Shown one piece after another: positions 5,153 to 36,570 of a DNA stretch of 46,040 nt. The first letter of the stretch is position 1, and each line of letters starts with the position of its first letter. The position numbers and the translations under genes are program-made. The notes under the pieces are model-generated. The model was not told where the DNA came from. It ran no database searches and saw nothing but the letters and a program-made list of their open reading frames with translations. Origin of the DNA: Halobacteriota archaeon (GTDB lineage Archaea; Halobacteriota; Syntropharchaeia; DAOWMC01); NCBI GenBank assembly GCA_034189535.1, contig JAXHUQ010000002.1, forward strand, positions 1 through 46,040, in the 5' to 3' direction.

Positions 5153-5262
5153 GAAAACACCAAATAACACTTTACAATTCTACAACTACTTCATCCCTTC
5201 ACCTATTAAAACACAATGGTTAAAGAGTCGTAAAAGGAATAAAGAAGAGTACCGGGGCAAAT

Positions 5263-9327: not shown

Positions 9328-9630
9328 TTTATTTTCCCCTATTATAAGCCCCATCCATACCACTCCATTTTGAAAACGGGTGAATCCACGTTTGCCGTTG
9401 TTTGGGTATTTGGTTTACTTTGTGGACTTCTTGTTTTAAATGTTTTAGGTATAACGTTCCGGTGTATGCGAAGTCCGAGCAAAGTAAGGATTTGAATGGA
9501 TTGGTGCAACCCCCTAGAGCTGCGTAGCGGATGTTGTGGGGGACGTGCTGTAACTGGATCAGCCCGCCAATCAAGTGGGGCAATTTGTTATGTGAATATT
9601 ACATTAGGTATTTTACATTTGCTGATTTTC

Positions 9631-10335
9631 TTAGATAAGGCTAATTTGCTCAAGTAGTAATTTTCCTAATTGAGTTATTTCGGAATATGAGATTTCTGGC
9701 TGACCAGTAAATTGATTAAACAATGGCTGACCTAAATCCTTATCGAATCGAATATTGTTTTTTATCAAACCAAGACGCTCTAAATGTTGTATATAACTAT
9801 ATTGAAGTGCTGCTTTCTGGATAATTTCTTTATCTGCCCCCAAATAAGGCTGAATCCGATCTAGAATATTCTCATGTTTATTCCGAAATTCTTCATCACC
9901 ACCAAATGTAGGAAATAGATAGAATCTTAACCATATTATTTCAATATCATTTAGTTCTTGTAATAATTTAAGTAAAAATTTTGACTCTTGAAGTTTAATT
10001 GAGTCATTCGTTATTCCATTTGTAACAATAGAGCTTATATACCTTCTTCTTTCGTCTGTTATTGCTCTAGAAGCTTGAACAAAACCTTCTTCAATTAAAT
10101 CGATAAATTCATCATTATCCTTTAGATTATTAATTTTTTCTTCCGAAATGTCTGATATTTTTTTATCAAGTTCTTCGATATATTTAGTTAGTCTGTCAAA
10201 TCTTTGATCAGGAATAACATTTCCAACTAATTCTGAAAGTAACGCGCCAGCGAAAGGTACAGCACCAACTGCTGATTTTGCTACACTGGTCAGAATATCT
10301 GTTTTATTGTTGTTAAGATTAATTTTATCAGACAT
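9631..10335 (-). CDS. Orphan hypothetical protein, predicted all-alpha, in a very AT-rich segment
   Basis: 234-aa ORF with no competing frame. N-terminal Gly/Ala-rich hydrophobic segment AKSAVGAVPFAGALLSELVGNVIP, followed by charged helical sequence. TATA-like TATATAAT and ATAATTATAA boxes 25-45 nt upstream of the ATG on the minus strand. I recognise no family. Confidence 0.55.
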   Translation of the reverse strand: MSDKINLNNNKTDILTSVAKSAVGAVPFAGALLSELVGNVIPDQRFDRLTKYIEELDKKISDISEEKINNLKDNDEFIDLIEEGFVQASRAITDERRRYISSIVTNGITNDSIKLQESKFLLKLLQELNDIEIIWLRFYLFPTFGGDEEFRNKHENILDRIQPYLGADKEIIQKAALQYSYIQHLERLGLIKNNIRFDKDLGQPLFNQFTGQPEISYSEITQLGKLLLEQISLI

Positions 10336-10556
10336 GATGCACCCTGTTTCAAGTTGTGGTTATAATTATGTTTTTGAGGATTATATACATCTTCATTTAT
10401 CAAATTAAACTATAATTACTTTTATATTAGACACATGAGATATTATTTTACCCATTTTCCATATTAAGTTTTTGAACCTATTTAAAATTATCCGAAAATT
10501 CAAGAAAAACAATAATAATTCGTTTGGAAGGATATATTTGTATATTTTGTATTTCT

Positions 10557-10594
<38 letters not shown>

Positions 10595-10925
10595 TCTGAT
10601 TTTTTACATCGCAAGCAGTTATCTGATCCCAAATATCGTCCCTGTCTAGTGCAGTGGGTACGGGAGTTTCTGAATTTGCCCATTAGAGACTAGGATATTC
10701 ATTCGAACAGACTCGTGATCTTTTTAAGGATTTTTCGTCACGGTTAAGCTTTGCAAAAGGATGGATTGAACGGATTCCAGATGAAGATTTTAAGTATGAA
10801 TTGTTAGGTTGTTGAGTATAATCTCTTTGGTTTTTACCTGGCCTAAATTCTGAATCTTGATACGAGCTACGTCTGTGATACAATCACAACTTTTTTGTTG
10901 ATGACTGGGAAAGTAGCAGAGGTAA

Positions 10926-11856: not shown

Positions 11857-12576
11857 TCAGACCCACATTACATCCAGATCGTGTGGTAGAAGGATTGGTT
11901 TAAAGACCTCCCCTGCTTTCTCGATCTCTTTATCGGGATCTACTCTACGGAATATATGGACCAAGGCAACCATCTTTGAATTCGAAGAACTTGCAAGTTT
12001 TGCTGCGTTGAGTATCGAAGAGTGCCCCGGAACTCCTTCAAGATACGCTTCGCATATCAGTAGATCCGAATCTTTTGAGAGGTCGGTCAACCCGTCACTG
12101 TGGGCACCATCGCTAGTATATGTTACCTTCTTATCGTTTATTATGGAAGTGGCATAAGATTCCACCGAATGAACAGTCTCAACAAATGAGAACTCATACC
12201 CCTTGAATCTCTTGGTATCGCCTTCAACGATCTCTTCGGTCTTTATCTCAAACTTAAAGTCATCAAGAGATTTCTTATAGGAGATATCAAGGAGAGTATC
12301 GATGTAATTATCAATCCCTTTGGGAGCAAATATCTGAAGGTCCTTTGTCCTTCGCTCTTCCCTCGATGCGAGAAAAAAGGCAGGCAATCCAAATGTATGG
12401 TCGGCATGGAGGTGGCTGATATAGATGACCTCGATCTTGGAAAGGTTCAGTCCGATCCTCCTTAGCTGTGTCAATGCATGATTACCGCAGTCGAGCAGTA
12501 TCTTGTCGTCTATGAGCATTGATGTGTTTGCTCTCTTACCGAATGCTTCTCCGGTACCTAAAAATACAACCTTCAT
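11857..12576 (-). CDS. MBL-fold metallo-hydrolase (RNase Z-like subgroup)
   Basis: MKVVFLGTGEAFG... N-terminus, HxHxDH motif ISHLHADHTFG, and later TVHSVES / CEAY...GHS blocks. Confidence 0.75.
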   Translation of the reverse strand: MKVVFLGTGEAFGKRANTSMLIDDKILLDCGNHALTQLRRIGLNLSKIEVIYISHLHADHTFGLPAFFLASREERRTKDLQIFAPKGIDNYIDTLLDISYKKSLDDFKFEIKTEEIVEGDTKRFKGYEFSFVETVHSVESYATSIINDKKVTYTSDGAHSDGLTDLSKDSDLLICEAYLEGVPGHSSILNAAKLASSSNSKMVALVHIFRRVDPDKEIEKAGEVFKPILLPHDLDVMWV

Positions 12577-12603
12577 TTAATTTTCCCCCTCATCAGATCC
12601 AGA

Positions 12604-13116
12604 TTATAGATTCTCTTTCTGATAGACCCCGTCATATCCGTCTTCTACCGGAGTCGATCTCAGAAAGATCAGTTGAAGGATACGCGCATCCTTTTTTAGA
12701 TGTACTCCATCACTATTTTTTACGATTAGGAGGCTCTCGCTTCTACCCTCATATCCTGCATCCCAGATCGCTGAATCAACGGTGCAGCCGCTCCGAAGCA
12801 GGGAGGATCTCGGCCTACCTATCGCACACATATCCTTTGGAATACTAACCACTTCATTAAATATAACTTTATAGCACCCTTCTTTAAGAAATATCCAGCC
12901 ATCATCCCCAAAATTAAGTACCTTACAGTCCGGTATCTCCCTCTCAGAGTTATCAAAAGCTATTCTGCCGGAACCACAAAAAGCCTCGATTCGCGAAAGA
13001 CTCAGATCAATTCCATTCACTTGTATCTGTTTTTCCGGGTCAACCATCTCTCCAACAAGTCCTTTCTCGACTTCAGTTACCAGTTCATCCTTCGATAAAA
13101 CAGATCCCATCTTCAT
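12604..13116 (-). CDS. dut: dUTP diphosphatase of the dCTP-deaminase/dUTPase (archaeal) family
   Basis: 170 aa. NGIDLSL, GRPRSSLLRSG and IWDAGYEGRSESLL blocks match the trimeric dCTP deaminase/dUTPase fold family. The size fits the archaeal probable-dUTPase type rather than the longer bifunctional Dcd. Confidence 0.7.
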   Translation of the reverse strand: MKMGSVLSKDELVTEVEKGLVGEMVDPEKQIQVNGIDLSLSRIEAFCGSGRIAFDNSEREIPDCKVLNFGDDGWIFLKEGCYKVIFNEVVSIPKDMCAIGRPRSSLLRSGCTVDSAIWDAGYEGRSESLLIVKNSDGVHLKKDARILQLIFLRSTPVEDGYDGVYQKENL

Positions 13117-13231
13117 TACCTCACAAGCATTTACAAATATGAGGGGGTATGTAACAGATAAGGTTTTTCAAAGAGACGATGCGGGATCTTCATGGGAAAT
13201 ATTATTATTTGAGATAACACTTACCTAAAAT

Positions 13232-20194: not shown

Positions 20195-20632
20195 ATGCTA
20201 TCAAGACCGATTGATGTTCTGCTGGTGGAAGATAATCCCGGTGATGTGAGGTTGACTGAAGAGGCTCTTAAAGAGGGTGTAATGCGAATAAACCTGCACG
20301 TCACAAATGACGGGGTCGAAGCAACTAAGTTTCTAAAAAAAGAGGATGAATATGCTAATGCACCTTCTCCTGATCTGATATTACTCGATCTAAACATGCC
20401 CAGGAAGGGCGGACGTGAGGTTCTCGAGGAGATAAAAGCCGATGAGAATCTTAGGCGTATACCAGTTGTAGTCCTCACAACTTCGAGAGCAGAGGAGGAC
20501 ATTAAAAAGTCTTATGACCTTCACGCTAACTGTTTCATCACAAAACCTGTAGATATGGATCAGTTCGTCGAAGTGATAAAGTTCATAGAAGGATTCTGGT
20601 TCACAGTTGTAAAATTACCCGGAGGGTACTGA
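20195..20632 (+). CDS. Stand-alone response-regulator receiver (Rcp1/phytochrome-partner-like CheY type), RR1
   Basis: [20 protein letters not shown], phospho-acceptor [40 protein letters not shown]-terminal FIEGFWFTVVKLP. No output domain. Stop overlaps the next start (TGATG). Confidence 0.9.
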   Translation: MLSRPIDVLLVEDNPGDVRLTEEALKEGVMRINLHVTNDGVEATKFLKKEDEYANAPSPDLILLDLNMPRKGGREVLEEIKADENLRRIPVVVLTTSRAEEDIKKSYDLHANCFITKPVDMDQFVEVIKFIEGFWFTVVKLPGGY

Positions 20633-23600
20633 TGACTGGTCTTGGTAACTCAAATGTGATTTTATCTGCAATAAGGGAAAAGGAAGATGATTTTTTAGAT
20701 CATGAAAGTAACTTTAAGTCACTGATAGAGAACTCTTCGGATGCGATAGTCGTAATTGGGCCCAAAGGAAAAGTGGTCTACCAAAGCCCTTCGTATGAGA
20801 AGATTTTGGGCCGCAAGAAGGAGGATCACCTGGGAGATTATGCCCATAGATACATTCATCCCATGGATCTCCCCCATATGTACAAACTATTTGGAAGACT
20901 CTTGCGTTCTCATGAAACTTTTGAGAAGATCAGGTTACGTCTGAAACATAGTGATGGGTCGTGGCACTGGATCCAGGCGACAGCAAAAAATCATCTTGAT
21001 GATCCGAAGATAAATGGGATTGTGGTCAATTTTCGAGATATAACAGATCAAAAAGAGATTGAAGAGAAGTTAAAGGATACTATCAAAAAATATTCGGCCA
21101 TCATTGATGGGGTAAGGGAAGGCGTAATTATTCTAAAAGACATGAAGGTCGAATTTGCGAGTCAGAGTGTTGAGGATATCACCGGTTACTCAACGGATGA
21201 GATAAAAAACATTGATCCGATGAAGGTTATTCTTCAAAAAGACTACAACAAAGTGGTTGAGATCTTCCGCAATATAGTGAAAGAAAGCGAAGTGATAAAA
21301 CCTCAACAATTCCAGATTTTTCACAAAGATGGGCACACACTCTCTCTTGAGCTAAGTAGTAAAAAGATCAAGAATAGGCGTGAAACGACTGATATTGTCT
21401 TTTTACGGGATCTTTCCTTAAAAGAAGAGAAGGAAAAAGTACTAAAGGATAGCGAGGAGAAGTACGCAACTCTTGTGAATATGAGCCAGGATGGGGTTCT
21501 ACTGTTACAACATGATAGAATCGTCTATGCAAATAATAGGTTCTACGATATATTGGGGATCGATAGGTCGAGTTTGGATGGAAAAAGTATCATATCTACT
21601 CTTTCGAAGAGTATGCCAGATATGCTCAGCGCAATGTCAAAAGAAGATAGAGAGATGCTTTTAAATAGGCTTTCGGACGCAAAGAAGGGAAATATCACCT
21701 CGCACTCATACCAGGTACCACTTAAAACAAGATCTGGCGAGATATGTTGGATCGAGATCTATGTAAACCCGATAAAGTATAAAGGAGAACCTGCGGAGAT
21801 TGTAGTATTCAGAGACGTTACAAAATTCAAGAATTACGAAGATAAACTGGGCAGATTAAAAGAGCACTATCGGTCTTTGATCGAGTCTTCTCCAGATATG
21901 ATAGCTCAGTTCAACGGCAGCGGTAAAATTATTATGGCTAATACCAGGATGGCTGAATTTTTAGAGGTATCACTTGAGGAGCTAATAGGTGGTGATGCTT
22001 TAAAAGTTATGCCAAAAGAGCTTTTGACACGCGCAATTGAGCTGCTTTCAACTGCTACAAAGTGTGAAAAACCGTTCTTCTTCGAGGATTATATCAAAGG
22101 TAGGTACTATCACAGTGTGATTGTGCCAGTTGATATTCCTGGTGAGAAGAGGACTTTTCAGATGATCTCTCGCGATATTACCGAGCATAAAGAGGCAGAG
22201 ATCGAGATTGAAGTTGCCAAAAAAAGGATGGAAGATATACTCGAAGGCATGATCGATGGAATCACCATCTCCGACATGCAGGCAAATATCCTATATGTAA
22301 ACAAGGCAGCAACTATGCAGACAGGGTTTCAACCTGAAGAGCTGATCGGAAAGAAGGTGATGGAAGTATACATAGGAAAAGAAGATTTTCTGAAAGCTGC
22401 CAAACATCTGAAAAAACTCTTCACAGGCGAATCTCTGAAGGCTGAAGAGTACTCGATCTTAAGAAAAAATGGACCTGCATTTCCGGCAAGTCTCAACTTT
22501 TCACTTTTAAAGGATAGTGATGGGAAGCCAGAGAATATTATTGCAGTCCATAGAGATATCACCGAACGCAAGAGTATGGAAGAGGAGCTTCACAAGAGTA
22601 AAGAGCGTTACCGCCTTGTAGCAGACAACTTGGAGGACATCGTATGGAGTATGGATATGAGCTTAAAGATCGATTACATAAGTCCTTCAGCAAAGACCAT
22701 CTACGGCTTAGATCCCGAAGAGGCGTTGGGAAAGCCGCTTATGAGCATACTATCTAAGGAATCGGCCGAATCGATGATGAATGGGATCAAACAGAATCCT
22801 GCCCTATTTAAAATAATGATGGAGATGATCTCCGGGCGCATCGATTCAGGTGAATTAAAAAATAACTCGGATGTTCTTTCAAAACCGATAGAGTACGAAT
22901 ATACACGTCAGGATGGTACAAAACTCTTCGTCGAATCTGCAATGAGCCCGATGATTGATGATGGGAATGCAGTCGGGATCTGTGGAATTACCCGCGATAT
23001 TACCGAGCGCGTGAAGGCTGAAATAAAGGTAAACGAGCTAATGAATGATCTGGAACGCAGTAACAAAGAACTGGAGCAGTTCGCATACGTTGCTTCTCAC
23101 GACCTCCAGGAACCTCTGCGTATGGTTTCAAGTTATCTTACTCTCCTCTCGCGAAGGTACAAAGGTAAGCTCGATTCCGACGCTGATGATTTTATCCATT
23201 TCGCTGTTGATGGTGCAACACGCATGCAGAGAATGATAAATGATCTTCTCACATACTCAAGAGTCGGTACGCGGGGTAAGCCATTTGAAGAAGTTGATAG
23301 TGAAACCCTTCTTAAAGACGCTCTCTCAAATCTGGAGATAAGAATCGAGGAGAGTAGTGCCATAGTCACTCATGATCCCCTTCCAACTGTGATGGCAGAT
23401 GATGTGCAATTTGTACAGTTACTTCAGAATCTCATAGGAAACTCAATCAAATATAATGATAAAGATACGCCAGAGGTTCACATTGGAGTTGAGGATAAAG
23501 ACGGAGATTGGCTATTTTCAGTAAAGGATAACGGCATCGGAATAGAACCGGAATATATCGATAGCGTCTTTGAGATATTCAGAAGGCTTCCGACCGAGAA

Positions 23601-23763
23601 GGAGTATGAAGGGAGCGGAATAGGCCTTTCTGTCTGTAAGAAGATAGTTGAGAGGCATGGGGGACGGATATGGCTTGAATCGGAGCCTGGGAGTGGGACG
23701 ACGTTTTACTTCACAGTTCCTTCATTAAAAAACGAAAAATTAGAGGTAGCAAGCGTAATGTGA
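20632..23763 (+). CDS. Soluble multi-PAS sensor histidine kinase HK1 (6 PAS/PAC modules + HisKA + HATPase_c)
   Basis: 1043 aa with no hydrophobic TM segment. Six about 120-aa modules each end in a PAC-like (F/L/T)RD(I/V)(T/S)E.K linker. H-box [20 protein letters not shown]-box [13 protein letters not shown]1 VKDNGIGI. G2 GSGIGLSVCKKIVERHGGRIW. Confidence 0.9.
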   Translation: MTGLGNSNVILSAIREKEDDFLDHESNFKSLIENSSDAIVVIGPKGKVVYQSPSYEKILGRKKEDHLGDYAHRYIHPMDLPHMYKLFGRLLRSHETFEKIRLRLKHSDGSWHWIQATAKNHLDDPKINGIVVNFRDITDQKEIEEKLKDTIKKYSAIIDGVREGVIILKDMKVEFASQSVEDITGYSTDEIKNIDPMKVILQKDYNKVVEIFRNIVKESEVIKPQQFQIFHKDGHTLSLELSSKKIKNRRETTDIVFLRDLSLKEEKEKVLKDSEEKYATLVNMSQDGVLLLQHDRIVYANNRFYDILGIDRSSLDGKSIISTLSKSMPDMLSAMSKEDREMLLNRLSDAKKGNITSHSYQVPLKTRSGEICWIEIYVNPIKYKGEPAEIVVFRDVTKFKNYEDKLGRLKEHYRSLIESSPDMIAQFNGSGKIIMANTRMAEFLEVSLEELIGGDALKVMPKELLTRAIELLSTATKCEKPFFFEDYIKGRYYHSVIVPVDIPGEKRTFQMISRDITEHKEAEIEIEVAKKRMEDILEGMIDGITISDMQANILYVNKAATMQTGFQPEELIGKKVMEVYIGKEDFLKAAKHLKKLFTGESLKAEEYSILRKNGPAFPASLNFSLLKDSDGKPENIIAVHRDITERKSMEEELHKSKERYRLVADNLEDIVWSMDMSLKIDYISPSAKTIYGLDPEEALGKPLMSILSKESAESMMNGIKQNPALFKIMMEMISGRIDSGELKNNSDVLSKPIEYEYTRQDGTKLFVESAMSPMIDDGNAVGICGITRDITERVKAEIKVNELMNDLERSNKELEQFAYVASHDLQEPLRMVSSYLTLLSRRYKGKLDSDADDFIHFAVDGATRMQRMINDLLTYSRVGTRGKPFEEVDSETLLKDALSNLEIRIEESSAIVTHDPLPTVMADDVQFVQLLQNLIGNSIKYNDKDTPEVHIGVEDKDGDWLFSVKDNGIGIEPEYIDSVFEIFRRLPTEKEYEGSGIGLSVCKKIVERHGGRIWLESEPGSGTTFYFTVPSLKNEKLEVASVM
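23056..23711 (+). repeat. Direct repeat copy 1 (kinase-core segment of HK1); 656 bp, partner at 25683..26338
   Basis: Line-by-line comparison with a constant offset of 2627 bp. 23056-23618 is identical to 25683-26245 (563 bp, no difference seen). Three mismatches follow (23619, 23625, 23643) up to 23711. Sequences 5' of 23056 are only about two-thirds identical. The track also shows identical shadow ORFs (23133..23369 = 25760..25996). Confidence 0.9.
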
Positions 23764-23792
23764 CGAAGATATAATTACACGGAGTGCAGGGG

Positions 23793-26372
23793 ATGGAAAT
23801 TTCAACATGTGAAGATTATGGTGATACCGAACTAAAAATGGTGATTCAAAGAGTAATAAAAAATCTTGATCTTGACAGTACGATACTGATTGCCACCTAC
23901 CTAAATAAAAAGATCTCATTTGTCAATGATCATTTCACCGAAGTTTTGGGATACGAAGAAGCAGAGGTTTTGGGCGAAGACTTGTCAGATCTATCATCTT
24001 TTGATGGCCGTAAGAGATTTAATAAATCTTTATTTCAGAGAAAAGATCTCAAAATGGTACTTATTTCATGGCAATGTATACCAATATTAGGTAAATCTGA
24101 TGAGAAGATCGGATTACTTCTATCAGGTATGGAAGAGACTGATAAAAAGATTTCGGATGAGCTTTACTCTAAGGTTGTAGAAAGAGCAAATGACGCCATT
24201 TTCATCATCCAGGATGGTGTCTTCAAGTTTGCAAACCAGAAGATGGCAGATTTTAGTAAATACATGGTGGAAGAACTTGTTGGAATGGACTTTCAAAAGT
24301 TGATCACACCAGAGTCCATAGATATAGTCGCTGAAAGAGTTAGAAAAAGATTAGCAGGAGAGCTTGTAGCAAATTCCTACGAGTTAGAACTCCTTGATAA
24401 AGAAGGCCATGTGCTGCCCATTGAGGTAAATGCCGGTTTGATCGATTACGAGGGTAGACCAGCAGACCTGGTCTTTTTGCGTGATATTTCTGAACGTAAG
24501 AAGATGGAGGATTCACTCAGGGAGTCCGAGCAGAAATACTCAACCGTGGTAGAGGGAAGTAATGACGGCATCATAATACTAGATAATAAGATGTGTGTTG
24601 TGTATGCCAATAAAACGATACTTGATTTGTTGGGGTATACAACTGAAGCTATAGGATCAAATGTACTTAAATACATAAAAATCGAACCCAATCGGCTAAT
24701 TAATCTAATGGGTAACTTTCGTCAACGTATGGCAGGTGAAGGTGTAACTTCAACCTTCGAAATAGATCTATTGCATAAAAATGGTAATATAATCCCTGCC
24801 GAGGTTAGTATCGCCAAAATTGATTTTAAAAGTAAACCTTCAGATGTGATTTTCATTCGTGTCATATCCGAACGAAAGCGGGCTGAAGAAGCTATAAAGG
24901 CAGAAAAAGAAAAATATCAAGACGTTGTTGAAAATATAGAGGAGGGTTTATTTACCCTTGATAGGTATGGTAAATTTATTTACCTAAATCAGGAGATGGT
25001 TGAAAATATTACCGGATATACATCAGAAGAACTTATTGGAACGCACATTTCAGCGTTAGTCTCAAAAAGGAGAAATACAGCCATATTGCCCTCATTTTTG
25101 ACGTTATTAAAAAGGAATAAAATATGTAACGTTGAAACAGAGATTAAGAAAAAAGACGGTACTTTTGTTCCGATAATTGCAACTATAACTCCCAAAATTG
25201 AAGATGGTAAAGTAACCAAGATATTTGGTGTAGTTAGAGATATATCTGAAAGAAAACATTTTGAAAAATCAATCGAAGATGCCCACAAGCAACTGAAAAA
25301 TATCTTTGATAGCGTTGATGTTGTATTGTTCTCAAATGATATTGTCAAATCTCGCATACTAGAGGTCTCACCAAGTTGCGAAAAACTCTATGGATACACT
25401 CCTGAGGAGTTCATTGAGAACCCAATGATTTGGAGAGATACGATACACCCAGATGACAGAAAATCGATTTCAGAACTTATCATCAAAATGTTTTCAGGAA
25501 AATCGCTAGGTGCAGAATACCGCATCATCCGATCTGATGGAGAGATACGGTGGGTATGTCTTAACCTAAAACCGATACTTGATAGCTCAAACAGCCTCAT
25601 ACGCGTTGATGGGGTTGTATCTGATATTACCGAACGCAAGAAGATTGAGGTAGAGAAGGGGGAACTACTTGAAGACCTTGAGCGCAGTAACAAAGAACTG
25701 GAGCAGTTCGCATACGTTGCTTCTCACGACCTCCAGGAACCTCTGCGTATGGTTTCAAGTTATCTTACTCTCCTCTCGCGAAGGTACAAAGGTAAGCTCG
25801 ATTCCGACGCTGATGATTTTATCCATTTCGCTGTTGATGGTGCAACACGCATGCAGAGAATGATAAATGATCTTCTCACATACTCAAGAGTCGGTACGCG
25901 GGGTAAGCCATTTGAAGAAGTTGATAGTGAAACCCTTCTTAAAGACGCTCTCTCAAATCTGGAGATAAGAATCGAGGAGAGTAGTGCCATAGTCACTCAT
26001 GATCCCCTTCCAACTGTGATGGCAGATGATGTGCAATTTGTACAGTTACTTCAGAATCTCATAGGAAACTCAATCAAATATAATGATAAAGATACGCCAG
26101 AGGTTCACATTGGAGTTGAGGATAAAGACGGAGATTGGCTATTTTCAGTAAAGGATAACGGCATCGGAATAGAACCGGAATATATCGATAGCGTCTTTGA
26201 GATATTCAGAAGGCTTCCGACCGAGAAGGAGTATGAAGGGAGCGGGATAGGACTTTCTGTCTGTAAGAAAATAGTTGAGAGGCATGGGGGACGGATATGG
26301 CTTGAATCGGAGCCTGGGAGTGGGACGACGTTTTACTTTACGATACCAAGGATGAGGGGGGATAGAGATTAG
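23793..26372 (+). CDS. Soluble multi-PAS sensor histidine kinase HK2 (5 PAS modules + kinase core identical to HK1)
   Basis: Track ORF 23784 (GTG). ATG at 23793 lies 8 nt after GGAG. Five PAS-like modules. From ERSNKELEQF to FYFT the protein is identical to HK1. Confidence 0.9.
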   Translation: MEISTCEDYGDTELKMVIQRVIKNLDLDSTILIATYLNKKISFVNDHFTEVLGYEEAEVLGEDLSDLSSFDGRKRFNKSLFQRKDLKMVLISWQCIPILGKSDEKIGLLLSGMEETDKKISDELYSKVVERANDAIFIIQDGVFKFANQKMADFSKYMVEELVGMDFQKLITPESIDIVAERVRKRLAGELVANSYELELLDKEGHVLPIEVNAGLIDYEGRPADLVFLRDISERKKMEDSLRESEQKYSTVVEGSNDGIIILDNKMCVVYANKTILDLLGYTTEAIGSNVLKYIKIEPNRLINLMGNFRQRMAGEGVTSTFEIDLLHKNGNIIPAEVSIAKIDFKSKPSDVIFIRVISERKRAEEAIKAEKEKYQDVVENIEEGLFTLDRYGKFIYLNQEMVENITGYTSEELIGTHISALVSKRRNTAILPSFLTLLKRNKICNVETEIKKKDGTFVPIIATITPKIEDGKVTKIFGVVRDISERKHFEKSIEDAHKQLKNIFDSVDVVLFSNDIVKSRILEVSPSCEKLYGYTPEEFIENPMIWRDTIHPDDRKSISELIIKMFSGKSLGAEYRIIRSDGEIRWVCLNLKPILDSSNSLIRVDGVVSDITERKKIEVEKGELLEDLERSNKELEQFAYVASHDLQEPLRMVSSYLTLLSRRYKGKLDSDADDFIHFAVDGATRMQRMINDLLTYSRVGTRGKPFEEVDSETLLKDALSNLEIRIEESSAIVTHDPLPTVMADDVQFVQLLQNLIGNSIKYNDKDTPEVHIGVEDKDGDWLFSVKDNGIGIEPEYIDSVFEIFRRLPTEKEYEGSGIGLSVCKKIVERHGGRIWLESEPGSGTTFYFTIPRMRGDRD
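25683..26338 (+). repeat. Direct repeat copy 2 (kinase-core segment of HK2)
   Basis: See copy 1. Same orientation, 2627 bp downstream. Confidence 0.9.
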
Positions 26373-26421: not shown

Positions 26422-29019
26422 TTGAAGTTGGAGTTACAAAGTGCGAAGAATTTTCTCGATTTGGCAGATTCCATCTTCGTTGCTACAGATACAGACCATA
26501 ATATTATATTTGTTAATAAAAAGACCTGTCAAGTTCTAGAACAAGCAGAAGAAGATATTATTGAGAAGAATTGGTATGATACATTCATCTCAGATGGGGC
26601 AAGAGAAGAGGTGAAGAACGATTTTCAAAACCTTTTATTGAGAAGCAGAGATGAGACACATGTCTTTGAAGAGACCATAGAAGTAGTCTATGGCATAAAG
26701 AAGTCCATATTATGGAGTCGTAAGGTAATAAAAGATGATTATGGGGTTAATATTGGAATAATAAATACAGGAGAAGAAATAACATGTCAAAAGCGTATTA
26801 ATGAAGATTTAATTGATATTAAACAAAAATATAATACTTTATTCGAAAATAAGATTGAAGGAGTCCTTATTTTTGATGCCCAAACGATGAAGATAGTATC
26901 GGTCAACCAAACCGCAGCAGAACTTTATGGATACCGAGGTAAAGAAGAAGCAATTGGGAAAAGTCCGCTTGATTTTATCCCGGAAGGAGATAGAGCTAAT
27001 GTCTTTAAAGATATCACAAATGAGCTGTTCAAAAAGAATCTGAAAAAAGTTAGAGAGTACAGGACAGTAACAACGGAAGGCCAAGAGAGATGGATCGAGG
27101 TATACGGCAGTAGGATCGAATTTGAGGGTAAATTGGCAGGTCTGGTCATATTTAAAGATATAACAGAAAAAAGGAAGATAGAAGAGGAATTACGCCGATC
27201 AAAAAAGAAATATGAAAGCATCGTAGAAGGGGCAAATGATGGCATTATTATTCTCACAGCAGATCTGAAAATTGTATACGCCAATAAAAAAGTGACTGTT
27301 CTGTTTGGTTATTCAGCTGAAGAAGCATTAAAGATCGATTTACTCAAGGCAATTTGCCCCCACTCTTTAAAAGAGGCATTGAATTTATTCAAACGCAGGA
27401 TGGTAGATGAAGATACGGCTTCAACATACAATATTGACGTATTCCATAAAGACGGTCATGTTATACCTGTCGAATTGAGTAGCGCAAAGACCGAGTATGA
27501 GGGTAAACCGGCTGATATAATTTTTATTCGCGACATTTCAGAACGCGAGCAAGGAAAAGAGGTATTTGAGGAACTAAAAGGGAGTTATCAGGCTCTTATT
27601 GAAAATTCTCCGGATATAATAGCCCAATTTGATGTAAACGGAAAAATAATCACTGCTAATACCAAAACAGCAGAATTTTTAAATTTGTCCTTGAATGAGG
27701 TGATCGGCTGCAAGATCTCTGAACTGTTACCAAAAGAGTTCATGGGAAACGCCTTTAAGCTAATATTAAATTTAATCGGAAGTGATGAACCAAGTTCATA
27801 TGAAGATTGTGTGAACGGAAGATACTATCAGATCTATTTGACACCTGTCAAGGGCTTAGGTAAGATAAGGACTTTTCAGTTTATCGCTCACGATATAACC
27901 GATAGAAAAGATGTGGAAATGGAGGTTTTGTCCGGTAAAAGGGAACTTGAGGATATAATGAACAGTATGATCGATTCGGTGTTTATCGCTTCTCATAAAG
28001 CAAAGATTATCAACGTCAATGATTCAGCCGCGTCGCTTACGGGATATGATAAAGAAGAACTGATCGGAACATTTCCCACAATGATTATTAGTAAAGATTC
28101 CATCTCATCATTCTTCTACAATCTCAAAAAATTACAGGCAGGTACCAATGTAGAATCGTTGGAACTAACAGCTAAAAGAAAAGATGGTTCAGAGGTCCCA
28201 GTCAGCGTTAATATCTCATTTACAACTGATTTTGAGGGAAAGCCGGATAAACTGGTCGTTGTTTTACGAGATGTAACTGAACGCAAAAGATATGAGAAGA
28301 GACTTAAAGAGACGCTGGAGGATTATAAAGACTCAATGGGGGAGCTTGAACAGTTCACCTTTATAGCCTCACATGACCTGCAGGAACCTCTACGCATGGT
28401 GGCAAGTTTTGTTCAACTCTTGTCGTTGCGATATAGGGGCAAATTTGATTCCGATGCTGATGAGTACATAGACTATGCCGTCGAAGGTGTAAAACGTATG
28501 AAGGGGATGGTCGATGATTTGATGGCTTTATCAAGTATCGGTACAACAAATAAATCTTTAAAACTTGTAGAGTGTGAAAAGGTCCTCGATTTGGCTATTT
28601 CCGCTCTTGATACAAAGATAAAGGATAGCGGCGCTGAGATTTTGCGTGAACCATTGCCAGTTGTAATTGGGGACAATTCTCGGCTCATTGAACTCTTCAC
28701 AAACCTATTAGATAACGCTATCAAGTATAAGGGATCAGAATCGCCGCATATTCACATATCTTCTGAAGAAAGAGAAGGTAACTGGGTCTTCTCGGTACAG
28801 GACAACGGTATTGGAATTGACCAGGAAAATGTTGAGCACATCTTTAAGATATTTAGGCGTATGGACAAGAGACGATCAGGGACCGGAATCGGACTTGCGA
28901 CATGTAAGAGGATTGTACAGCACCACGGGGGAAGAATTTGGGTAAAATCAGGGCTAGGGATAGGAACAACATTCTACTTTACAATTCCGGTAATGAAGGT
29001 TGAGAAAGATGAACGGTGA
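26422..29019 (+). CDS. Soluble multi-PAS sensor histidine kinase HK3 (5 PAS modules + HisKA + HATPase_c)
   Basis: TTG start. It is the first canonical start codon after the in-frame TGA at 26353, with AGGT 7 nt upstream. H-box [20 protein letters not shown]-box LFTNLLDNAIKY. VQDNGIGI. GTGIGLATCKRIVQHHGGRIW. Confidence 0.85.
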   Translation: MKLELQSAKNFLDLADSIFVATDTDHNIIFVNKKTCQVLEQAEEDIIEKNWYDTFISDGAREEVKNDFQNLLLRSRDETHVFEETIEVVYGIKKSILWSRKVIKDDYGVNIGIINTGEEITCQKRINEDLIDIKQKYNTLFENKIEGVLIFDAQTMKIVSVNQTAAELYGYRGKEEAIGKSPLDFIPEGDRANVFKDITNELFKKNLKKVREYRTVTTEGQERWIEVYGSRIEFEGKLAGLVIFKDITEKRKIEEELRRSKKKYESIVEGANDGIIILTADLKIVYANKKVTVLFGYSAEEALKIDLLKAICPHSLKEALNLFKRRMVDEDTASTYNIDVFHKDGHVIPVELSSAKTEYEGKPADIIFIRDISEREQGKEVFEELKGSYQALIENSPDIIAQFDVNGKIITANTKTAEFLNLSLNEVIGCKISELLPKEFMGNAFKLILNLIGSDEPSSYEDCVNGRYYQIYLTPVKGLGKIRTFQFIAHDITDRKDVEMEVLSGKRELEDIMNSMIDSVFIASHKAKIINVNDSAASLTGYDKEELIGTFPTMIISKDSISSFFYNLKKLQAGTNVESLELTAKRKDGSEVPVSVNISFTTDFEGKPDKLVVVLRDVTERKRYEKRLKETLEDYKDSMGELEQFTFIASHDLQEPLRMVASFVQLLSLRYRGKFDSDADEYIDYAVEGVKRMKGMVDDLMALSSIGTTNKSLKLVECEKVLDLAISALDTKIKDSGAEILREPLPVVIGDNSRLIELFTNLLDNAIKYKGSESPHIHISSEEREGNWVFSVQDNGIGIDQENVEHIFKIFRRMDKRRSGTGIGLATCKRIVQHHGGRIWVKSGLGIGTTFYFTIPVMKVEKDER

Positions 29020-31351
29020 TGATTGCGGGCAAGGGGACCTTATCTTAATGGGTACGGACAGCACGAATGATATCCTTATTAGGGGTTACACTCTCGCTGA
29101 AAAGTATCTCATCGATAAAGAGACGATAATTGTTGCCCTCGATTCCGATCAAAAGATACAAAATATTAACAGATATGGATTGGAATTACTTAGATATACA
29201 AGGGAAGACCTTTCTGGATGTAGTTGGTCCGATCTATCTGTTTCAGATGGGAATAGAAAAGAAGTAGAGTCTTTACTTGCTAAAATTCTAAAAGAACCAT
29301 CAGAAGAGAGTATAGCTTACAAAGACACCTTATTGACAAAGGATGGTACGACTAAGCACTTTTCATGGCGAGTTACTGTGGTTTTGGAAGATTCGGGTGA
29401 TGCGGTTGGGGCGATACTTACAGGGGGGGTTATAGGCGAGAATTTATATGATAGAGAGGGTGTGTATTCTGCCATCGTTAATGGGGGAAGTGATGGCGTA
29501 ATAATTATGAAAGATCTGAAGGTTGTCTTTGCCAATCAGAAGATAGCTGAGATCACGGGTTATGATATTGAAGAGGCTAGAGAGATAGATCTGAAAAAGA
29601 TAACACCGCCTGAGCACTATATAAAGGCTGCTTCCAGATTCATTCGGAGAATGAAAGGTGAGGATCTGCCCCAGGCCCTGGAGATGGAAATTTTTCATAA
29701 AGACGGTCATAGGATCCCCATTGAGCTTAATAACTCAAGGATAGAATATGATGGAGGACCTGCAAGTGCCATCTATATCCGGGATATATCTGATAGAAAA
29801 AAGGCAGAAGAGGATGCAAAAAAGAATGAAGAGATGTATAAATTCCTCTACGACAATAACCATGCCATAAATATAGTTATCGGGCTAGATGGGACAATTT
29901 TAGATCTTAATCCTGCTGCAGCAAGACTACTGGGGTATGATGCAAAAGAAATCTTGGGTAGACATGCTCTTGAGTTTGTCAGTCTCTCTCAGCGGAGTTC
30001 TGCTTTTTGGAATATGATAAAAATCTTGCGCGGAGATACTGTTCCAAGCATTGAGCTCGAAGTTGTTACCAAGTATGGCGACTCTACACTTCTATTTGCA
30101 GAGGGAAAAGCCGTCAGATTTGAAAAAAACGGACAACAAGGTATCATACTTAGTGGAATAGATATAACTGAGCGAAAGATAACAGAAGAAAACCTGTTAA
30201 GGAGTAAAGAGCAATATCGCCTACTTGCAGATAACCTGAAGGACGTTATCTGGAGTATGGATATGGAACTGAAGATAAATTATATCAGCCCGTCTTCCAT
30301 AGAGATGTTTGGTATAGATCCTGAAGATGCGATTGGAAAGTCGATGATGAATCTGATGCCAAAGGAATCGACTGAGTCGATGATGAGGGGTATAAAAAAG
30401 AATCCTGATTTATTAAAAACCATAATAGAGATGCTGTCTGGACTTATAAGCTCAACAGAGATTATTAAACGATCAGACCTTCTTTCAAGACCATTAGAAT
30501 ATGAATATTATTGCCCTGATGGTAAAAAAATCTACGTCAGTTCAACGATGAATCTTGTTATAAATTCGGAGGGTGAAGCTGTCGGAGTTTGTGGTATCAC
30601 AAGAGATATTACCAATCTTAAGAGATCAGAAGAAGGACTGAAAGAGGCCCTTTACAACCTAAGAAGGTCTAATCAAGAACTTGAGCAGTTGACCTATATT
30701 GCATCGCATGACCTGCAAGAGCCTCTGAGGATGGTTGCAAGTTTTGTAGGAATGCTTTCTATCCGCTACAAAGATAAACTGGATTCAGAAGCAAAAGAGT
30801 ATATAGACTACGCAATCGATGGCGTAAAACGGATGAGAGAAATGGTCGACAATCTGATGGCTTACTCGAGTGTTTTAACCAAAGGAAGTCCATTTGAACC
30901 GGTAGACTGTGATATGATACTTGATCGTTCGCTTAAAAACCTATTATTAAGTATTAATGAGTCTGAAGCGGTAATAACGTCAGAAAAGTTACCGCAATTG
31001 TGGGGAGATCCTACACAGTTAGCAGTAATATTCAGGACACTCATCGAAAATGCAATCAAGTATCGCAGTAAAGAGAGACCGATTATTATAATCTCGTCAG
31101 AGAGAGAAGATGATCACTTCATTTTTAAAATTAAAGATAACGGAATAGGAATCGAACCTAAAAACCTAGAGAAGGTCTTCGAACCTTTCAAACGCATGAA
31201 TAAGAAGAGATCCGGTACCGGAATAGGTCTTGCGATATGTGACAGGATAATTCAGCGTCATGGTGGAAGGATATGGGTAGAATCAGAGCCTGGGAAGGGT
31301 TCAACGTTTTACTTTACTATTCCGGTCAAAGGAGGGGATAAAAATGAATGA
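29009..31351 (+). CDS. Soluble multi-PAS sensor histidine kinase HK4 (4 PAS modules + HisKA + HATPase_c)
   Basis: Track start TTG 29000. ATG at 29009 (MNGDDCGQ...) follows GAAGGT and overlaps the HK3 stop (29017-29019). H-box [56 protein letters not shown]. Confidence 0.85.
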
Positions 31352-31787
31352 AGAACGGTTAAAACCAATTGAGATACTCCTTGTGGAGGATAATCCTGGA
31401 GACGTAAGGTTGACCCAAGAAGCCTTCAAGGAAGGTAAGATAAAGAACAATCTGTATGTAGCAAAAGACGGTGTTGAAGCGATAGAATTTCTAAGGCATC
31501 AGGGTGAGTATTCCGATTCGCCTCGTCCTGACCTGATTCTACTGGATCTGAATATGCCAAGAAAGAGTGGTAAAGAGGTTCTTGAAGAGGTCAAGGCTGA
31601 TGAGGGGCTAAGGCGCATCCCTGTTGTAATCCTCACAACTTCCAAAGCAGAAGAGGATATATTCAGATCATACGATCTACATGCAAACTGTTTCATAACA
31701 AAACCAGTGGATATGGATCAGTTTATTGATGTTGTAAAGTTTATTGAGAGCTTCTGGTTCACTGTTGTGAGGTTACCGACAAGATGA
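31344..31787 (+). CDS. Stand-alone response-regulator receiver RR2 (Rcp1-like)
   Basis: [79 protein letters not shown]. Overlaps the HK4 stop by 8 nt and the HK5 start by 4 nt (ATGA). Confidence 0.9.
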
Positions 31788-34510
31788 CTGGTAAGAAGAT
31801 TGAGTCCGCAGGTTCTCTTCTGTTACTAAAAGAGCCTGAAGATAGCAGACAAAAAGATGAGTGGAGTGCAGCAGAGAGATATCTTGATTTTACAAAAGAG
31901 ATTATTGTTGCAATCGATCTTGATGAGAAGATTACTCATATCAACAGAGCAGGGTGTGAGACCTTAGGCATTCGAAGAGAGGAGATTTTTGGTGAGAACT
32001 GGTTTGAGATGTTCGTCCCGGAAAATTTAAGAGAAGATGCAAGATCTTACTTCAGAAGGTTGATCTTTGAAGATGGATATCATTCGGAACATTTTGAGTC
32101 TTATGCCATCGGAAGTGAGAGTCATGAAAAGATAATTTCATGGCACATCGCTGCCTTTGCAGATGAATCCGGTAATACAATAGGTGTACTTGGATCAGGG
32201 GAGGATATCACCGAACTAGTGGTAATGAAGGGTGAGTTGTCACAACAGATGGCGTATACGAAAGGAATTCTCGATAATGCACCCGATATGATACTGGTCC
32301 TTGATAGGAGATGGAAGATAACCTATGCAAACAACACTCTCGCAAAATTTGCGGGAATGAAAACAAATGAAGTTGTCGGTAAGGAATTGATGAGTGTTGT
32401 AAAGGAAGCGGGAATTCTGAACAGTAAATCGGTCAAAATATTGTCTGCACGTATGAAAGAGTGGCTTCAGACGGGAAAACCAATATCTGACGTTGAGTTA
32501 GACGCAATTGACAAAAATGGTGAAGAATTTTCCTTCAGCTACTCAACATCTGTTATCAAGGGTGAAGATGGGGACGTCATCGGAGAGTTCGTAATAATTC
32601 GTGATATCACTGAATCAAAGAAGGTAAAAGAGGTGATAGAAGAGAGTGAAGAAAAATACTCTTCACTTGTTGAACTTAGCCCGGATGCTATTATGATGAT
32701 CAGTGAAGCAAAAATCGTCTTCTGCAACAGCCAATATTACAAGATGCTCGGCATTGAAGATTATGATGTAGTTGGAAAGAGTGTCTTTGAACTTCTCAAT
32801 GGGATAATGAAAGATTCACTTGCCGTTTTAACAAAAGATGAAAGGCAAAAGATCGTAAAAAACCTTAAAGATGCAGCCAGAGGTGTCGTTGAACCACGTA
32901 GATATCAGATACCTGCAAGGAGATCCACAGGCGAGATGATATGGGTCGAAATATATGTTACTCCGATCACCTACAAAAAGAAGACTGCAGAGATGATCCT
33001 TGTGCGAGATATCACTGAGAGCAAAAGAGCTGAAGAGATCACCAAGATTGAGCATCAGAAATATCAGGAGGTTGTCGAAAACATCGATGAAGGGCTATTT
33101 AATATGGATCTGAAAGGTAGGGTCAGACTCATCAACCCGAAGATAGCCGAAAAGGTGACCGGGTATGACATGGATGAGATTGAAGGAAAATCCCTTACAA
33201 TGCTTGCACCAAAAGAAGAGATGCCTGCCGCTATATCTGTCATCCAAAAGGTCCTTGGTGGGAATAAGATTCGCAACTTTGAGACGGTGCTTAAGAAGAA
33301 GGATGGTACTATTGTTCCTTTCCTCATGTCTCTTACACCCAAGATGAAGGATGGTAAAATTTACGAGATATTTGGCGTTGTAAATGATATCAGTGAGAAG
33401 AAAAACGCCGAAGAGAAAGCAAGGGTCGTACAGGAGCGGTATAAGACGGTAGTTGAAAATATCGGAGAAGGGCTATTTATACAAGATGCAACAGGAGTCA
33501 TAAATTATGTCAATCCGGAGATAGAGAATATAACTGGCTACAGCGCACGCGAACTGATCGGATCGAACTTTGCAAATCTTCTGTCAAAAGATGTTCGCAA
33601 GATTATATTACCGGGTTTCGGTAGACTCATGAAAGGAGAAACTCTGCATAATCTCGATATTAATTTTACAAGAAAAGACGGAGAAGAGATCTTTATAGAA
33701 ATTACTATAACGCCATATCTAAAGAAAGGTAAAATTACAGAGATAACAGGCGTTATTCGAGATATAACCGAGAGGAAGGAGTCAGAAGCAATTTTGAATA
33801 AGACTTTATCCGATCTCAAGCATACCAATAAAGAACTTGAGCAGTTTGCATATGTTGCCTCTCATGACTTGCAGGAGCCGCTCAGGATGGTGGGAAGCTA
33901 TGTGCAACTCATCTCACGTAGGTACAAAGGCAGGTTAGACGATGATGCCGACGAGTTTATAGAGTATGCTGTTGACGGTGCCAGGCGTATGCAGAATATG
34001 ATCAACGACTTACTCACCTATTCACGCGTTGGGACAAGGGGAAGTCCATTTAAGCAAATAAACTGCGAAGAGATCATAAGAAATGTAACTATAGATCTTT
34101 CAATACTGATTGAGGAGAATAATGCATCGATAACTCACGATCCTCTGCCTGTCGTGTGGGCCGATGAAGTACAGCTTATACAGCTATTCTCAAATCTTAT
34201 TGGAAACTCGATCAAGTATCGCCGTGAAGATAATCCAAAGGTTCATATTTCGGTTGAAAAGAGTGCTGACAATTGGTTATTTTCTGTACAGGACAACGGA
34301 ATGGGAATAGACTCGGTTTATAAAGAAAATATATTCAACGTCTTCAGTAGAATGGATAAAAGACAGTCGGGTACTGGAATTGGTCTTGCAGTATGTATGA
34401 AGATAGTTAAGCGTCATGGTGGCAATATTTGGGTCAAATCAGAATTAAATAAAGGTTCAACATTCTATTTTACAATTCCAACAAGGAGAAAATTTGATGA
34501 TGAAGAATAA
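31784..34510 (+). CDS. Soluble multi-PAS sensor histidine kinase HK5 (5 PAS modules + HisKA + HATPase_c)
   Basis: 908 aa with no TM segment. H-box [60 protein letters not shown]. Confidence 0.9.
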
Positions 34511-34943
34511 CATAGATGAAGCTGTTGAAATACTACTTGTGGAAGATAACCCTGGCGATGTAAGATTGACGCAGGAAGCGTTCAAAGAAGGCAAGATAAA
34601 GAATAATTTACATGTAGTCGGGGATGGTATTGAAGCTTTAGAATTTTTAAGGAATGAAGGCGAGTATGCGGATGCTCCTCGTCCCGATCTTGTGCTACTC
34701 GATCTGAATATGCCGAGGAAGGGAGGTAGAGAGGTTCTTGAAGAGATGAAGGCAGATGACGATCTTAAAGGCATCCCTGTTGTGATTCTCACTACATCAG
34801 AAGCAGAGCAGGATATACTCAGATCATATGATATGCAGGCAAACTGTTACATAACAAAACCGGTAGATGTGATGCAGTTCTTCCAGATCATTCACTACAT
34901 CGAGGATTTCTGGTTTACTATTGTGAAGTTGCCGGGAGGTTGA
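34494..34943 (+). CDS. Stand-alone response-regulator receiver RR3 (Rcp1-like)
   Basis: [78 protein letters not shown]. Overlaps the HK5 3' end by 17 nt. The next gene starts 1 nt after its stop. Confidence 0.9.
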
Positions 34944-34944
34944 G

Positions 34945-36570
34945 ATGACTAAGACTAAAAATACAACGGTCCTACTGGTAGAAGACAACCCAGGGGACGC
35001 ACGTCTTATAAAAGAGATGCTAAAATTCAGCAGCACCACAAGATTCGAGCTCACACAAGTTGAGAGTCTAAAAGATGCAATCGAGGTTCTTGAAGAGGAG
35101 TCTTTTGACATTATCCTCTCGGATCTCGGGCTCCCTGACAGCTGGGGACTTGATACCTTCAACAAATTACACATTCATGTGCCGAGGGTCCCAACCATTG
35201 TGCTGACCGGGCTAAACGATGATGTCACCGGTACAAGGGCGGTGCGCGAAGGTGCACAGGATTACCTCATAAAAGGACAGGTGGATGGGGATATTCTGTC
35301 AAGGGCCATCCATTATGCCATAGAGCGAAAGAAGAGTGATGAAGCATTAAGAGAGAGCGAAGAGAAGTACTCTGCACTTGTAGAGTTGAGCCCTGATGGA
35401 ATAGTTCTATTGCAAGCTGGCAAGGTGATATTTGCAAATAATAGCATATATAGACTCTTTGATATTGATGAATCAGATTTAATCGGTGGAGATATTTTTA
35501 AACTGATGAATGGTTCATTAAAAGATGCTATGGATGTATTGAATGGCCAGGAGAGGAGTTTAATAATAAATAACCTATCAGAAGCTGCAAGAGGAAATAT
35601 AACGGCCAGAACATACCGATTACCTTCAAAGAGGAAGTCAGGAGATATAATCTGGATTGAGGTCCATGTCACTCCGATCATGTACAAGGGAATAACTTCA
35701 GAGCTGATCCTCTTCAAGGACATCACAGAACAAAAGGAAGCCGAACAATCAATTAAGGAGAAGAATAAGGAGTTACAGGTGATGGGAGAAGAGCTACAAG
35801 AACTCAACCTTAATCTTGAAAACAAGGTAAAAGAGAGGACGATAGAGGTTGAAAATCTTCTGAAACAGAAGGATGAATTTGTTAATCAGCTCGGGCATGA
35901 CCTTAAAAGCCCACTTACACCCCTTGTAACGCTCTTGCCCATAATTGAAGAAAGAGAGAAAGATTCTGAACTTAAAGAACTACTCGGAATAAGTATCGAG
36001 AATGTCAATTTCATGAAGGAGCTTGTTATAAAGACACTCTCACTTGCGAGGTTGAATGCGCCAAATACAAAGTTCAATATAGATGAAGTAAAGCTCTCAA
36101 AAGAGGTTAAAACGATCTTTTACACCAAACAACAGATATTCATTGAGAGAGGTATATCGACAGAAAATAAGGTTCCAGAGGGACTGATTGTAAGAGCGGA
36201 TAAGTTGAGGCTCGATGAGTTATTTGACAACTTGATAACAAACGCAATCAAGTATAGCAACGAAGGCGGTTCTATAACGATAGATGCGGAAGATAATGGT
36301 GATTTCGTTAAAGTTTCAATCAAAGATACCGGCGTTGGTATGGCCGAAGAGCAGTTGAGCCATATCTTTGAAGAGTTCTACAAGGTAGACCCATCAAGAC
36401 ACGATCTTGATTCTTCCGGTCTCGGACTTTCGATATGTAAACGCATTGTCGAGAAGCACGGTGGAAAGATATGGGCTGAAAGCCCCGGAGAAGGTAAGGG
36501 CACAACATTCTACTTCACGATCCCTGCTCTAAGAGTGGAAGAGGAGGAGATGTTAGTTCTTGCTTATTAA
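34945..36570 (+). CDS. Hybrid REC-PAS-histidine kinase HK6 (N-terminal receiver, 1 PAS, coiled coil, different HisKA type, HATPase_c)
   Basis: Receiver: [42 protein letters not shown] related to HK1 module 3 and HK5 module 3. H-box FVNQLGHDLKSPLTPL (EnvZ-like, unlike the SHDLQEPL cores upstream). N-box LFDNLITNAIKY. IKDTGVGM. SSGLGLSICKRIVEKHGGKIW. Confidence 0.9.
   Translation: MTKTKNTTVLLVEDNPGDARLIKEMLKFSSTTRFELTQVESLKDAIEVLEEESFDIILSDLGLPDSWGLDTFNKLHIHVPRVPTIVLTGLNDDVTGTRAVREGAQDYLIKGQVDGDILSRAIHYAIERKKSDEALRESEEKYSALVELSPDGIVLLQAGKVIFANNSIYRLFDIDESDLIGGDIFKLMNGSLKDAMDVLNGQERSLIINNLSEAARGNITARTYRLPSKRKSGDIIWIEVHVTPIMYKGITSELILFKDITEQKEAEQSIKEKNKELQVMGEELQELNLNLENKVKERTIEVENLLKQKDEFVNQLGHDLKSPLTPLVTLLPIIEEREKDSELKELLGISIENVNFMKELVIKTLSLARLNAPNTKFNIDEVKLSKEVKTIFYTKQQIFIERGISTENKVPEGLIVRADKLRLDELFDNLITNAIKYSNEGGSITIDAEDNGDFVKVSIKDTGVGMAEEQLSHIFEEFYKVDPSRHDLDSSGLGLSICKRIVEKHGGKIWAESPGEGKGTTFYFTIPALRVEEEEMLVLAY

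Follow-up and report, generated by a model that had tools for sequence, protein, structure and literature searches.

Probable recurrent gene conversion of the transmitter modules of two adjacent multi-PAS histidine kinases in a Halobacteriota archaeon

The tufA/tufB genes and the rRNA operons are examples of concerted evolution. Among prokaryotic paralogues the process is well documented but considered rare (PMC6053082), and the duplicated mtrA genes of methanogens are a case of interlocus conversion (PMC4632066). The survey in PMC6053082 covers 26 recurrently converted genes, and the word 'kinase' is absent from its main text. For sensor kinases, Alm et al. (2006) inferred recent duplication from kinase-domain trees, in a paper with 0 occurrences of gene conversion (PMC1630713). 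In literature coverage that was incomplete, and is thus no proof of absence, we found no account of histidine kinases whose transmitter modules undergo gene conversion with each other. Here we analyse two neighbouring genes, HK1 and HK2, on contig JAXHUQ010000002.1 of a Halobacteriota archaeon (the window, which is the entire contig of 46,040 nucleotides, nt). They encode histidine kinases (HK) with different PAS sensor arrays and an almost identical transmitter core. We consider it quite likely that these cores evolve in concert through repeated interlocus gene conversion that is restricted to the transmitter module; both kinases would then probably signal to one receiver. The features on which this reading rests are as follows.

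20195..20632, + strand: RR1, stand-alone CheY-like receiver response regulator (RR; Pfam Response_reg, 1.4e-20)
20632..23763, + strand: HK1, cytoplasmic multi-PAS sensor histidine kinase of 1043 amino acids (aa); about 6-7 PAS, then HisKA and HATPase_c (Pfam)
22996..23055, + strand: HK1 linker from the last PAS to the DHp domain, DITERVKAEIKVNELMNDLE, outside the tract
23056..23711, + strand: putative converted tract, copy A; HK1 residues 809-1027, DHp and catalytic domain, ending in FYFT
23712..23783, + strand: HK1-specific C-terminal tail, VPSLKNEKLEVASVM*, plus the 20-nt spacer before GTG 23784; unrelated to the HK2 tail
23784..26372, + strand: HK2, multi-PAS sensor histidine kinase; about 4-5 PAS, then HisKA and HATPase_c (Pfam)
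25623..25682, + strand: HK2 linker, DITERKKIEVEKGELLEDLE, outside the tract
25683..26338, + strand: putative converted tract, copy B; HK2 residues 634-852
26422..36570, + strand: remainder of the kinase array (HK3-HK6 with RR2 and RR3), giving the background divergence for the HK1/HK2 core

Positions 23056-23618 are identical to 25683-26245, with zero mismatches over 563 nt at a constant offset of 2627 nt. As far as 23711/26338 (656 nt) the two copies differ only at 23619, 23625 and 23643, and beyond 23711 they diverge. All three differences are synonymous third-position changes (GGA/GGG, GGC/GGA and AAG/AAA). Over 654 nt of the tract the non-synonymous divergence (dN) is 0 and the synonymous divergence (dS) 0.021, and the two proteins are 100% identical over 219 residues of the DHp and catalytic (CA) domains. 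By blastn, 22996-23714 matched 25623-26341 at 96.4% over 719 nt without gaps, against 66-76% for the remaining core pairs in the 20-37 kb region. Nucleotide identity to the HK1/HK2 core was 59-64% for HK3-HK5 and 47% for HK6, and at third codon positions HK3, HK4 and HK5 retained only 37-40% identity. In a Sawyer-type (GENECONV-type) test on five paralogues with 10,000 permutations, the longest run of matching polymorphic sites between HK1 and HK2 was 351, compared with a permutation maximum of 35, which excludes chance as the origin of the tract. Runs in the remaining window kinase pairs were 6-13.

The tract is sharply delimited. Its first residue is R809 in HK1 and R634 in HK2, at the junction of signalling helix and DHp and 14 residues short of the phospho-histidine, and it ends at FYFT, four residues short of the end of the Pfam HATPase_c match. 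It thus spans the whole DHp and CA transmitter (HisKA plus HATPase_c) and nothing more. In the 60 nt on its 5' side the two linkers are 63% identical. Further upstream the sensors are not alignable as DNA (~45%) and are unequal in length and PAS number. The 63% linker, the ~45% upstream and the differing sensors do not fit a simple recent tandem duplication of the gene.

The first-pass annotation, made from the letters and a list of open reading frames, had claimed the 563-nt identity at this offset, three mismatches up to 23711/26338, a drop to about two-thirds identity on the 5' side, clearly different sensor regions, and cores of HK3, HK4 and HK5 diverged at most synonymous sites; all were borne out on recomputation. 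The blastn of the two genes and the GENECONV-type test that it had proposed likewise agreed with it, as given above. Its sharp boundary at the PAS/DHp junction was right in that the identity starts abruptly at DHp, and has to be moved from the end of the PAS fold to the end of the signalling helix. Its HK2, at 23784-26372, is a gene, with a start to be revised: the frame gives 862 aa from GTG 23784, and the called protein of 859 aa (cluster member P0335) fits ATG 23793.

The three differences are confined to the last 93 of the 656 nt, an arrangement with a probability of (93/656)^3, or ~0.003, under uniformity. Their clustering at the 3' end suggests at least two tracts of unequal age, and an older tract reaching 23711 would have been followed by a younger one ending near 23618. 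No embedded RNA, tRNA, antisense gene or mobile element was apparent in the tract, which gave no Rfam or tRNA hits and contained no inverted repeats. Alternative open reading frames within it were short only (43-78 aa). A protein search with the core alone returned thousands of relatives at 60-74% aa identity and no closer third copy as a possible donor, and exact-sequence look-ups of HK1 and HK2 (two start choices) matched no other assembly.

By their domains HK1 and HK2 are class I (HisKA-type) sensor histidine kinases, for which autophosphorylation and phosphotransfer are predicted. Pfam HisKA was matched at 6e-11 in HK1 and 3.7e-11 in HK2, with an H-box carrying the conserved phospho-accepting histidine, and HATPase_c at 2.2e-29 and 1.4e-29, respectively, with N and G boxes that include GSGIGL. 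In HK1 these domains occupy residues 814-879 (HisKA) and 923-1031 (HATPase_c), and TIGR00229 matches seven stretches. HK2 is cytoplasmic, like HK1. A check of both PAS arrays revealed no LOV-type flavin motifs, and we found no curated equivalog that names either protein.

We compared the locus with its closest relatives, which are metagenome-assembled genomes (MAGs) labelled 'Halobacteriota archaeon' from one project. A scan of genome contigs with the HK2 sensor returned MAG21 as the only real relative. MAG21_tar_biofilm is a tar-associated Syntropharchaeales MAG assembled with metaSPAdes 3.14 from 2x150 Illumina reads (preprint 10.1101/2023.07.16.546273), and its contig L009 holds a rearranged version of the array. 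Sensor reciprocal best hits paired HK1 with mHK1050 (P0122; 53.6% aa identity over 688 residues), HK2 with mHK647 (53% aa) and HK3 with mHK880. In L009, 9.8 kb separates the core of mHK647 from that of mHK1050, a distance that includes two kinases and two receivers; the two cores share a perfect tract of 677 nt (L009 2619-3295 = 12449-13125). This MAG21 tract begins 10 nt upstream of the start of the window tract and ends 11 nt past its end; the longest run there was 363 against a maximum of 37 (10,000 permutations). Core nucleotide identity was 99.2% within the window and 100% within MAG21, but only 75.8% between the genomes, where third positions were 50% identical, dS was 2.1 and dN 0.12. 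The last PAS and linker showed the opposite grouping, with 66% identity between HK1 and mHK1050 compared with ~45% for any paralogous pair. The HK1 linker is 68% identical to that of its MAG21 orthologue, and the HK2 linker 88% identical to that of mHK647 and 98% to that of JAXHTM, another of the related MAGs. Cores that cluster by genome whilst sensors and linkers cluster by gene are the signature of concerted evolution.

Three further features of the MAG21 comparison were recorded. Two of its stand-alone receiver genes (L009 928-1401 and 3307-3780) are 90.5% identical in nucleotide sequence, against ~70% for other receiver pairs, and may represent a second recent duplication or conversion in the array. 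A PAS-coding segment of HK2 (24129-24577) is 88% identical to L009 1833-2278 in mHK647, compared with 73% for the HK1 genes of both genomes. Divergence between the window and MAG21 is very uneven along the array, with the HK3 gene 84% identical and the HK6 core 73%.

JAXHTM is the closest relative, and its HK2 orthologue (P0001) is 94% identical in aa sequence. Its contig L007 (2584 nt) begins within the HK1 core, continues across the HK1 tail and the spacer, takes in the complete HK2 sensor and stops in the HK2 core. Since this contig independently contains the end of the HK1 core and the start of the HK2 core, both genes carry such a core. The dS of the HK2 sensor between the window and JAXHTM was 0.067, three times the 0.021 between the paralogous cores in the window, indicating that the last homogenisation in the window would be younger than the split from JAXHTM. 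The HK1 tail and HK1-HK2 spacer (23712-23783) are only 62% identical to those on L007, with small indels, next to an HK2 sensor at 96.5%.

In JAXHTN (GCA_034190145.1), contig L008 carries the orthologue of the HK1 sensor (86% nt identity) and the start of the core, and contig L010 carries the RR1 orthologue followed by another kinase. The two contigs stop 105 and 92 nt into the core, respectively. Their terminal stretches of ~118 nt are identical and have four JAXHTN-specific substitutions in common that are absent from the window, pointing to within-genome homogenisation over the ~118 nt available. JAXHTN is thus probably a third lineage. L010 also opens with the last ~120 nt of an HK1/HK2-type core, and possibly three JAXHTN genes have the core in common. 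Along L010 1-3057, the RR1 orthologue is preceded by another kinase with an HK1/HK2-type core; the kinase after it is HK1-like at its N-terminus (80% nt identity as far as window position 21533), then diverges, and is 47% identical overall in aa sequence. This layout suggests a rearrangement of sensor arrays in JAXHTN.

Under recurrent conversion, HK1 and HK2 would be two old and distinct multi-PAS kinase genes whose transmitter halves have repeatedly overwritten each other by interlocus (ectopic) gene conversion, a non-reciprocal form of homologous recombination. The reach of each tract would be limited to the region of nucleotide homology, from the start of the H-box region to the end of HATPase_c, leaving the non-homologous PAS arrays, linkers and C-terminal tails untouched. 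The boundaries in different lineages would nearly coincide because the tract is confined to the part similar enough to pair. Homogenisation has probably occurred independently in at least two, and probably three, lineages rather than as one recent event. The earlier proposal of a very recent conversion limited to the transmitter is therefore upheld as to conversion, given MAG21 cores that group by genome and sensors that group by orthology, and revised as to a single recent event. The comparison with related loci that accompanied it yielded the grouping of cores by genome and the younger date of the last event relative to the JAXHTM split. Selection for shared wiring may favour the conversions, or they may be a neutral by-product of similarity.

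Several observations weigh against this reading. The relatives are 2x150 Illumina metaSPAdes MAGs described as fragmented, and the window is probably of the same kind. Differences in the interior of a repeat of more than 500 nt cannot be phased by 150-nt reads and may have been collapsed, and the only surviving differences sit within reach of phasing by reads, 69-93 nt from the unique 3' flank. Identity between the window and JAXHTM cores is a mosaic (23056-23265 ~98%, 23266-23505 ~80% and 23506-23711 ~93%). The divergent patch at 23266-23505 shows 57-93% identity per 30-nt window and a dS of 0.29-0.65, and L007 both begins and ends inside it. The patch could reflect recombination with an unseen allele or paralogue, or the complexity of the assembly graph; polarised with MAG21 as outgroup, the window and JAXHTM were equally distant and no direction emerged. 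The HK1 and HK2 core fragments of JAXHTM (23376-23711 and 23056-23335, respectively) have no overlap from which donor and acceptor could be told. With regard to the common receiver, those of the array are 67-72% identical to RR1, hence the assignment of a partner is weak.

The most serious rival is that the perfect 563 nt is overstated, the real cores being ~97-99% alike with one collapsed repeat edge threaded twice, and we allow this a minor but real chance. In metaSPAdes assemblies such bulges tend to be merged, after which the path passes twice through one edge. The related MAGs are fragmented assemblies of just this type (2x150 Illumina, metaSPAdes 3.14), the JAXHTM and JAXHTN contigs break inside the core or ~100 nt into it, as an unresolved repeat would, and none of the three differences in the window is more than one read length away from the unique 3' flank. 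However, the 150 nt that follow the unique 5' flank can be phased and contain no difference, and both phasable ends in MAG21 are also perfect. In the window, the phasable tract ends contain three differences in ~300 nt. A core identity of at least about 97-99% is thus established, with an exact 100% beyond what these data can give, and the biological conclusion would be unchanged, as orthologues differ far more than the paralogues could. That the contig is chimeric, with just one gene really having the core, is extremely improbable: nothing direct favours it beyond the general risk of metagenome assembly across repeats, whilst L007, from another MAG, joins the HK1 core end, tail, spacer, HK2 sensor and HK2 core start, and L008 links the HK1 sensor to a core start. 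Each gene has an unbroken reading frame and a full set of domains, the three differences and distinct tails mark two separate loci, and MAG21 has the same architecture. Of the assembly artefact that the first-pass annotation had offered as its alternative, the form affecting the whole repeat is made unlikely by these L007 and L008 junctions, and a weaker form, with interior differences erased, survives.

A biological alternative is the recent duplication of the transmitter module, or of the whole gene, followed by fusion to another pre-existing sensor array, that is, a lineage-specific expansion with domain shuffling. Near-identical kinase domains on different sensors are a hallmark of expanded kinase families (PMC1630713), archaea commonly have near-identical two-component genes in tandem (PMC5847659), and an unrelated metagenome contig (L017) carries two neighbouring kinases that match at 88% in the transmitter only. 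By contrast, both sensors and their abutting linkers have orthologues in MAG21 joined at the same junction to a MAG21-specific core, and two or three lineages would each have needed identical sensor-core fusions of their own at the very same codons. Moreover, each end of the tract falls where homology stops, as homologous recombination predicts and illegitimate fusion does not. We therefore regard duplication with fusion as improbable and favour recurrent conversion between old genes.

The DHp domain holds the determinants of phosphotransfer to the receiver and of homodimer specificity. Because DHp and CA are identical in all 219 residues, HK1 and HK2 should phosphorylate the same receiver and could heterodimerise. 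The two sensors thus probably have a shared output, in a many-to-one pathway integrating two PAS arrays, and HK1/HK2 heterodimers may form. The likeliest candidate for a phosphoacceptor common to both is RR1. It is the simplest choice since its gene is co-transcribed with HK1 and coupled to it in translation, the RR1 stop codon and the HK1 start sharing ATGA, and since HK2 begins 20 nt after HK1 without a receiver of its own. Identity of RR1 to the other receivers of the arrays is 67-83% by alignment; within the window array it is 72% for RR2 and 67% for RR3. The receiver genes of the array carry the conserved acidic pocket and phospho-accepting Asp (LLDLNMP). Paralogous kinases that arise by duplication are expected to become different in their DHp residues, avoiding cross-talk. 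An arrangement maintained by selection over long periods, in which conversion locks two PAS arrays (in JAXHTN possibly three) to one transmitter, one receiver and/or heterodimers, is a tentative and rather unlikely extension; if true, it would be the opposite of the usual insulation by divergence after kinase duplication.

The genes from RR1 to HK6 lie on one strand and are tightly packed. Stand-alone REC proteins such as those of this array are the commonest archaeal receiver type (PMC5847659). Downstream of HK2 the array consists of the following genes.

26422-29019, + strand: HK3, histidine kinase of the array
29000-31351, + strand: HK4, histidine kinase of the array
31344-31787, + strand: RR2, receiver of the array
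31784-34510, + strand: HK5, histidine kinase of the array
34494-34943, + strand: RR3, receiver of the array
34945-36570, + strand: HK6, REC-PAS-HK hybrid, the last kinase of the array

Ordinary housekeeping genes of archaea surround the array. An eRF1/Pelota-like protein (baeRF family 10, eRF1 domains 2 and 3) is encoded at 36621-37736 (+), 50 nt downstream of HK6. Further along, an AAA+ ATPase (42467-43492, +) and an overlapping S8 subtilase (43467-45575, +) match IetA (E 1e-96) and IetS (E 8e-105) of the IetAS anti-phage defence system. The pair lies in the part of the contig lowest in guanine plus cytosine (31-36% versus ~41%), suggesting that 42467-45575 is an acquired defence island.

We also surveyed 80 unrelated loci (654 kb) from the Joint Genome Institute (JGI) metagenomes, which served as background for intra-locus repeats only; in a scan of the JGI metagenomes with the core, no match exceeded 69% aa identity. 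One locus of the survey (L017) contains neighbouring HisKA_2 kinases (5101-7050 and 8709-10832) with unrelated sensors that are 88% identical in nucleotide and 84% in aa sequence in the transmitter only, from DITERKKAED onwards. With this pair among the 80 loci, similarity limited to the module is not unique to HK1/HK2. The pair has the appearance of an older case of what is seen at HK1/HK2, in a different kinase family. Elsewhere in the survey, L057 (4207-4943) has a perfect 353-nt tandem repeat just upstream of a kinase core and L089 (8468-9975) a near-perfect tandem repeat with a 384-nt period (85-94%). These repeats may be recent internal duplications of PAS units.

Archaeal two-component wiring is almost unexplored, and identical DHp and catalytic domains in at least two, probably three, genomes offer a natural test case for convergent or heterodimeric signalling. 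Trees of kinase domains serve both to date family expansions and as evidence for domain shuffling, and conversion limited to the module gives old genes the look of new duplicates. Should the process prove general, many of the 'recent lineage-specific expansions with domain shuffling' read from such trees would be old genes with converted cores. Such repeats also break short-read MAG assemblies inside kinase genes, as in two of the relatives, and may yield falsely perfect copies.

The shared module itself is an ordinary HisKA core of the Cph1/bacteriophytochrome-like type, matching 8f71 at 2.5e-53 and bacteriophytochrome kinase modules at ~1e-35. It belongs to the same transmitter family as the Cph1/bacteriophytochrome-type modules and HK853 (solved structures 8f71, 8uph and 2c2a/3dge), but unlike those of phytochrome type its inputs are PAS arrays without a phytochrome photosensory core. 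In Bacillus, KinA-E converge on Spo0F, and in Vibrio, LuxN, LuxQ and CqsS converge on LuxU. The arrangement proposed here resembles these systems in that several sensors with different inputs would address one receiver. The described kinases, however, have diverged cores and measured phosphotransfer, whereas those of HK1 and HK2 are identical and known from sequence alone.

The HK1/HK2 locus resembles the expansions described by Alm et al. (2006) in that neighbouring kinases with related kinase domains carry different N-terminal sensors, some without an adjacent receiver gene. It differs from them in that the sensors are orthologous across genomes, and hence the similarity of the kinase domains does not date HK1 and HK2. 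Near-identical kinase domains on different sensors can, on this evidence, arise by conversion between old genes. With concerted evolution as described in prokaryotes the locus has in common a similarity greater within than between genomes, sharp tracts, homogenised synonymous sites and occurrence in several lineages. What sets it apart is that only a sub-genic module is affected and that the other halves of both genes are non-homologous at the DNA level. Within short-read MAG data, the locus is a clear case, seen in several genomes, of a known process acting on the transmitter modules of archaeal sensor kinases.

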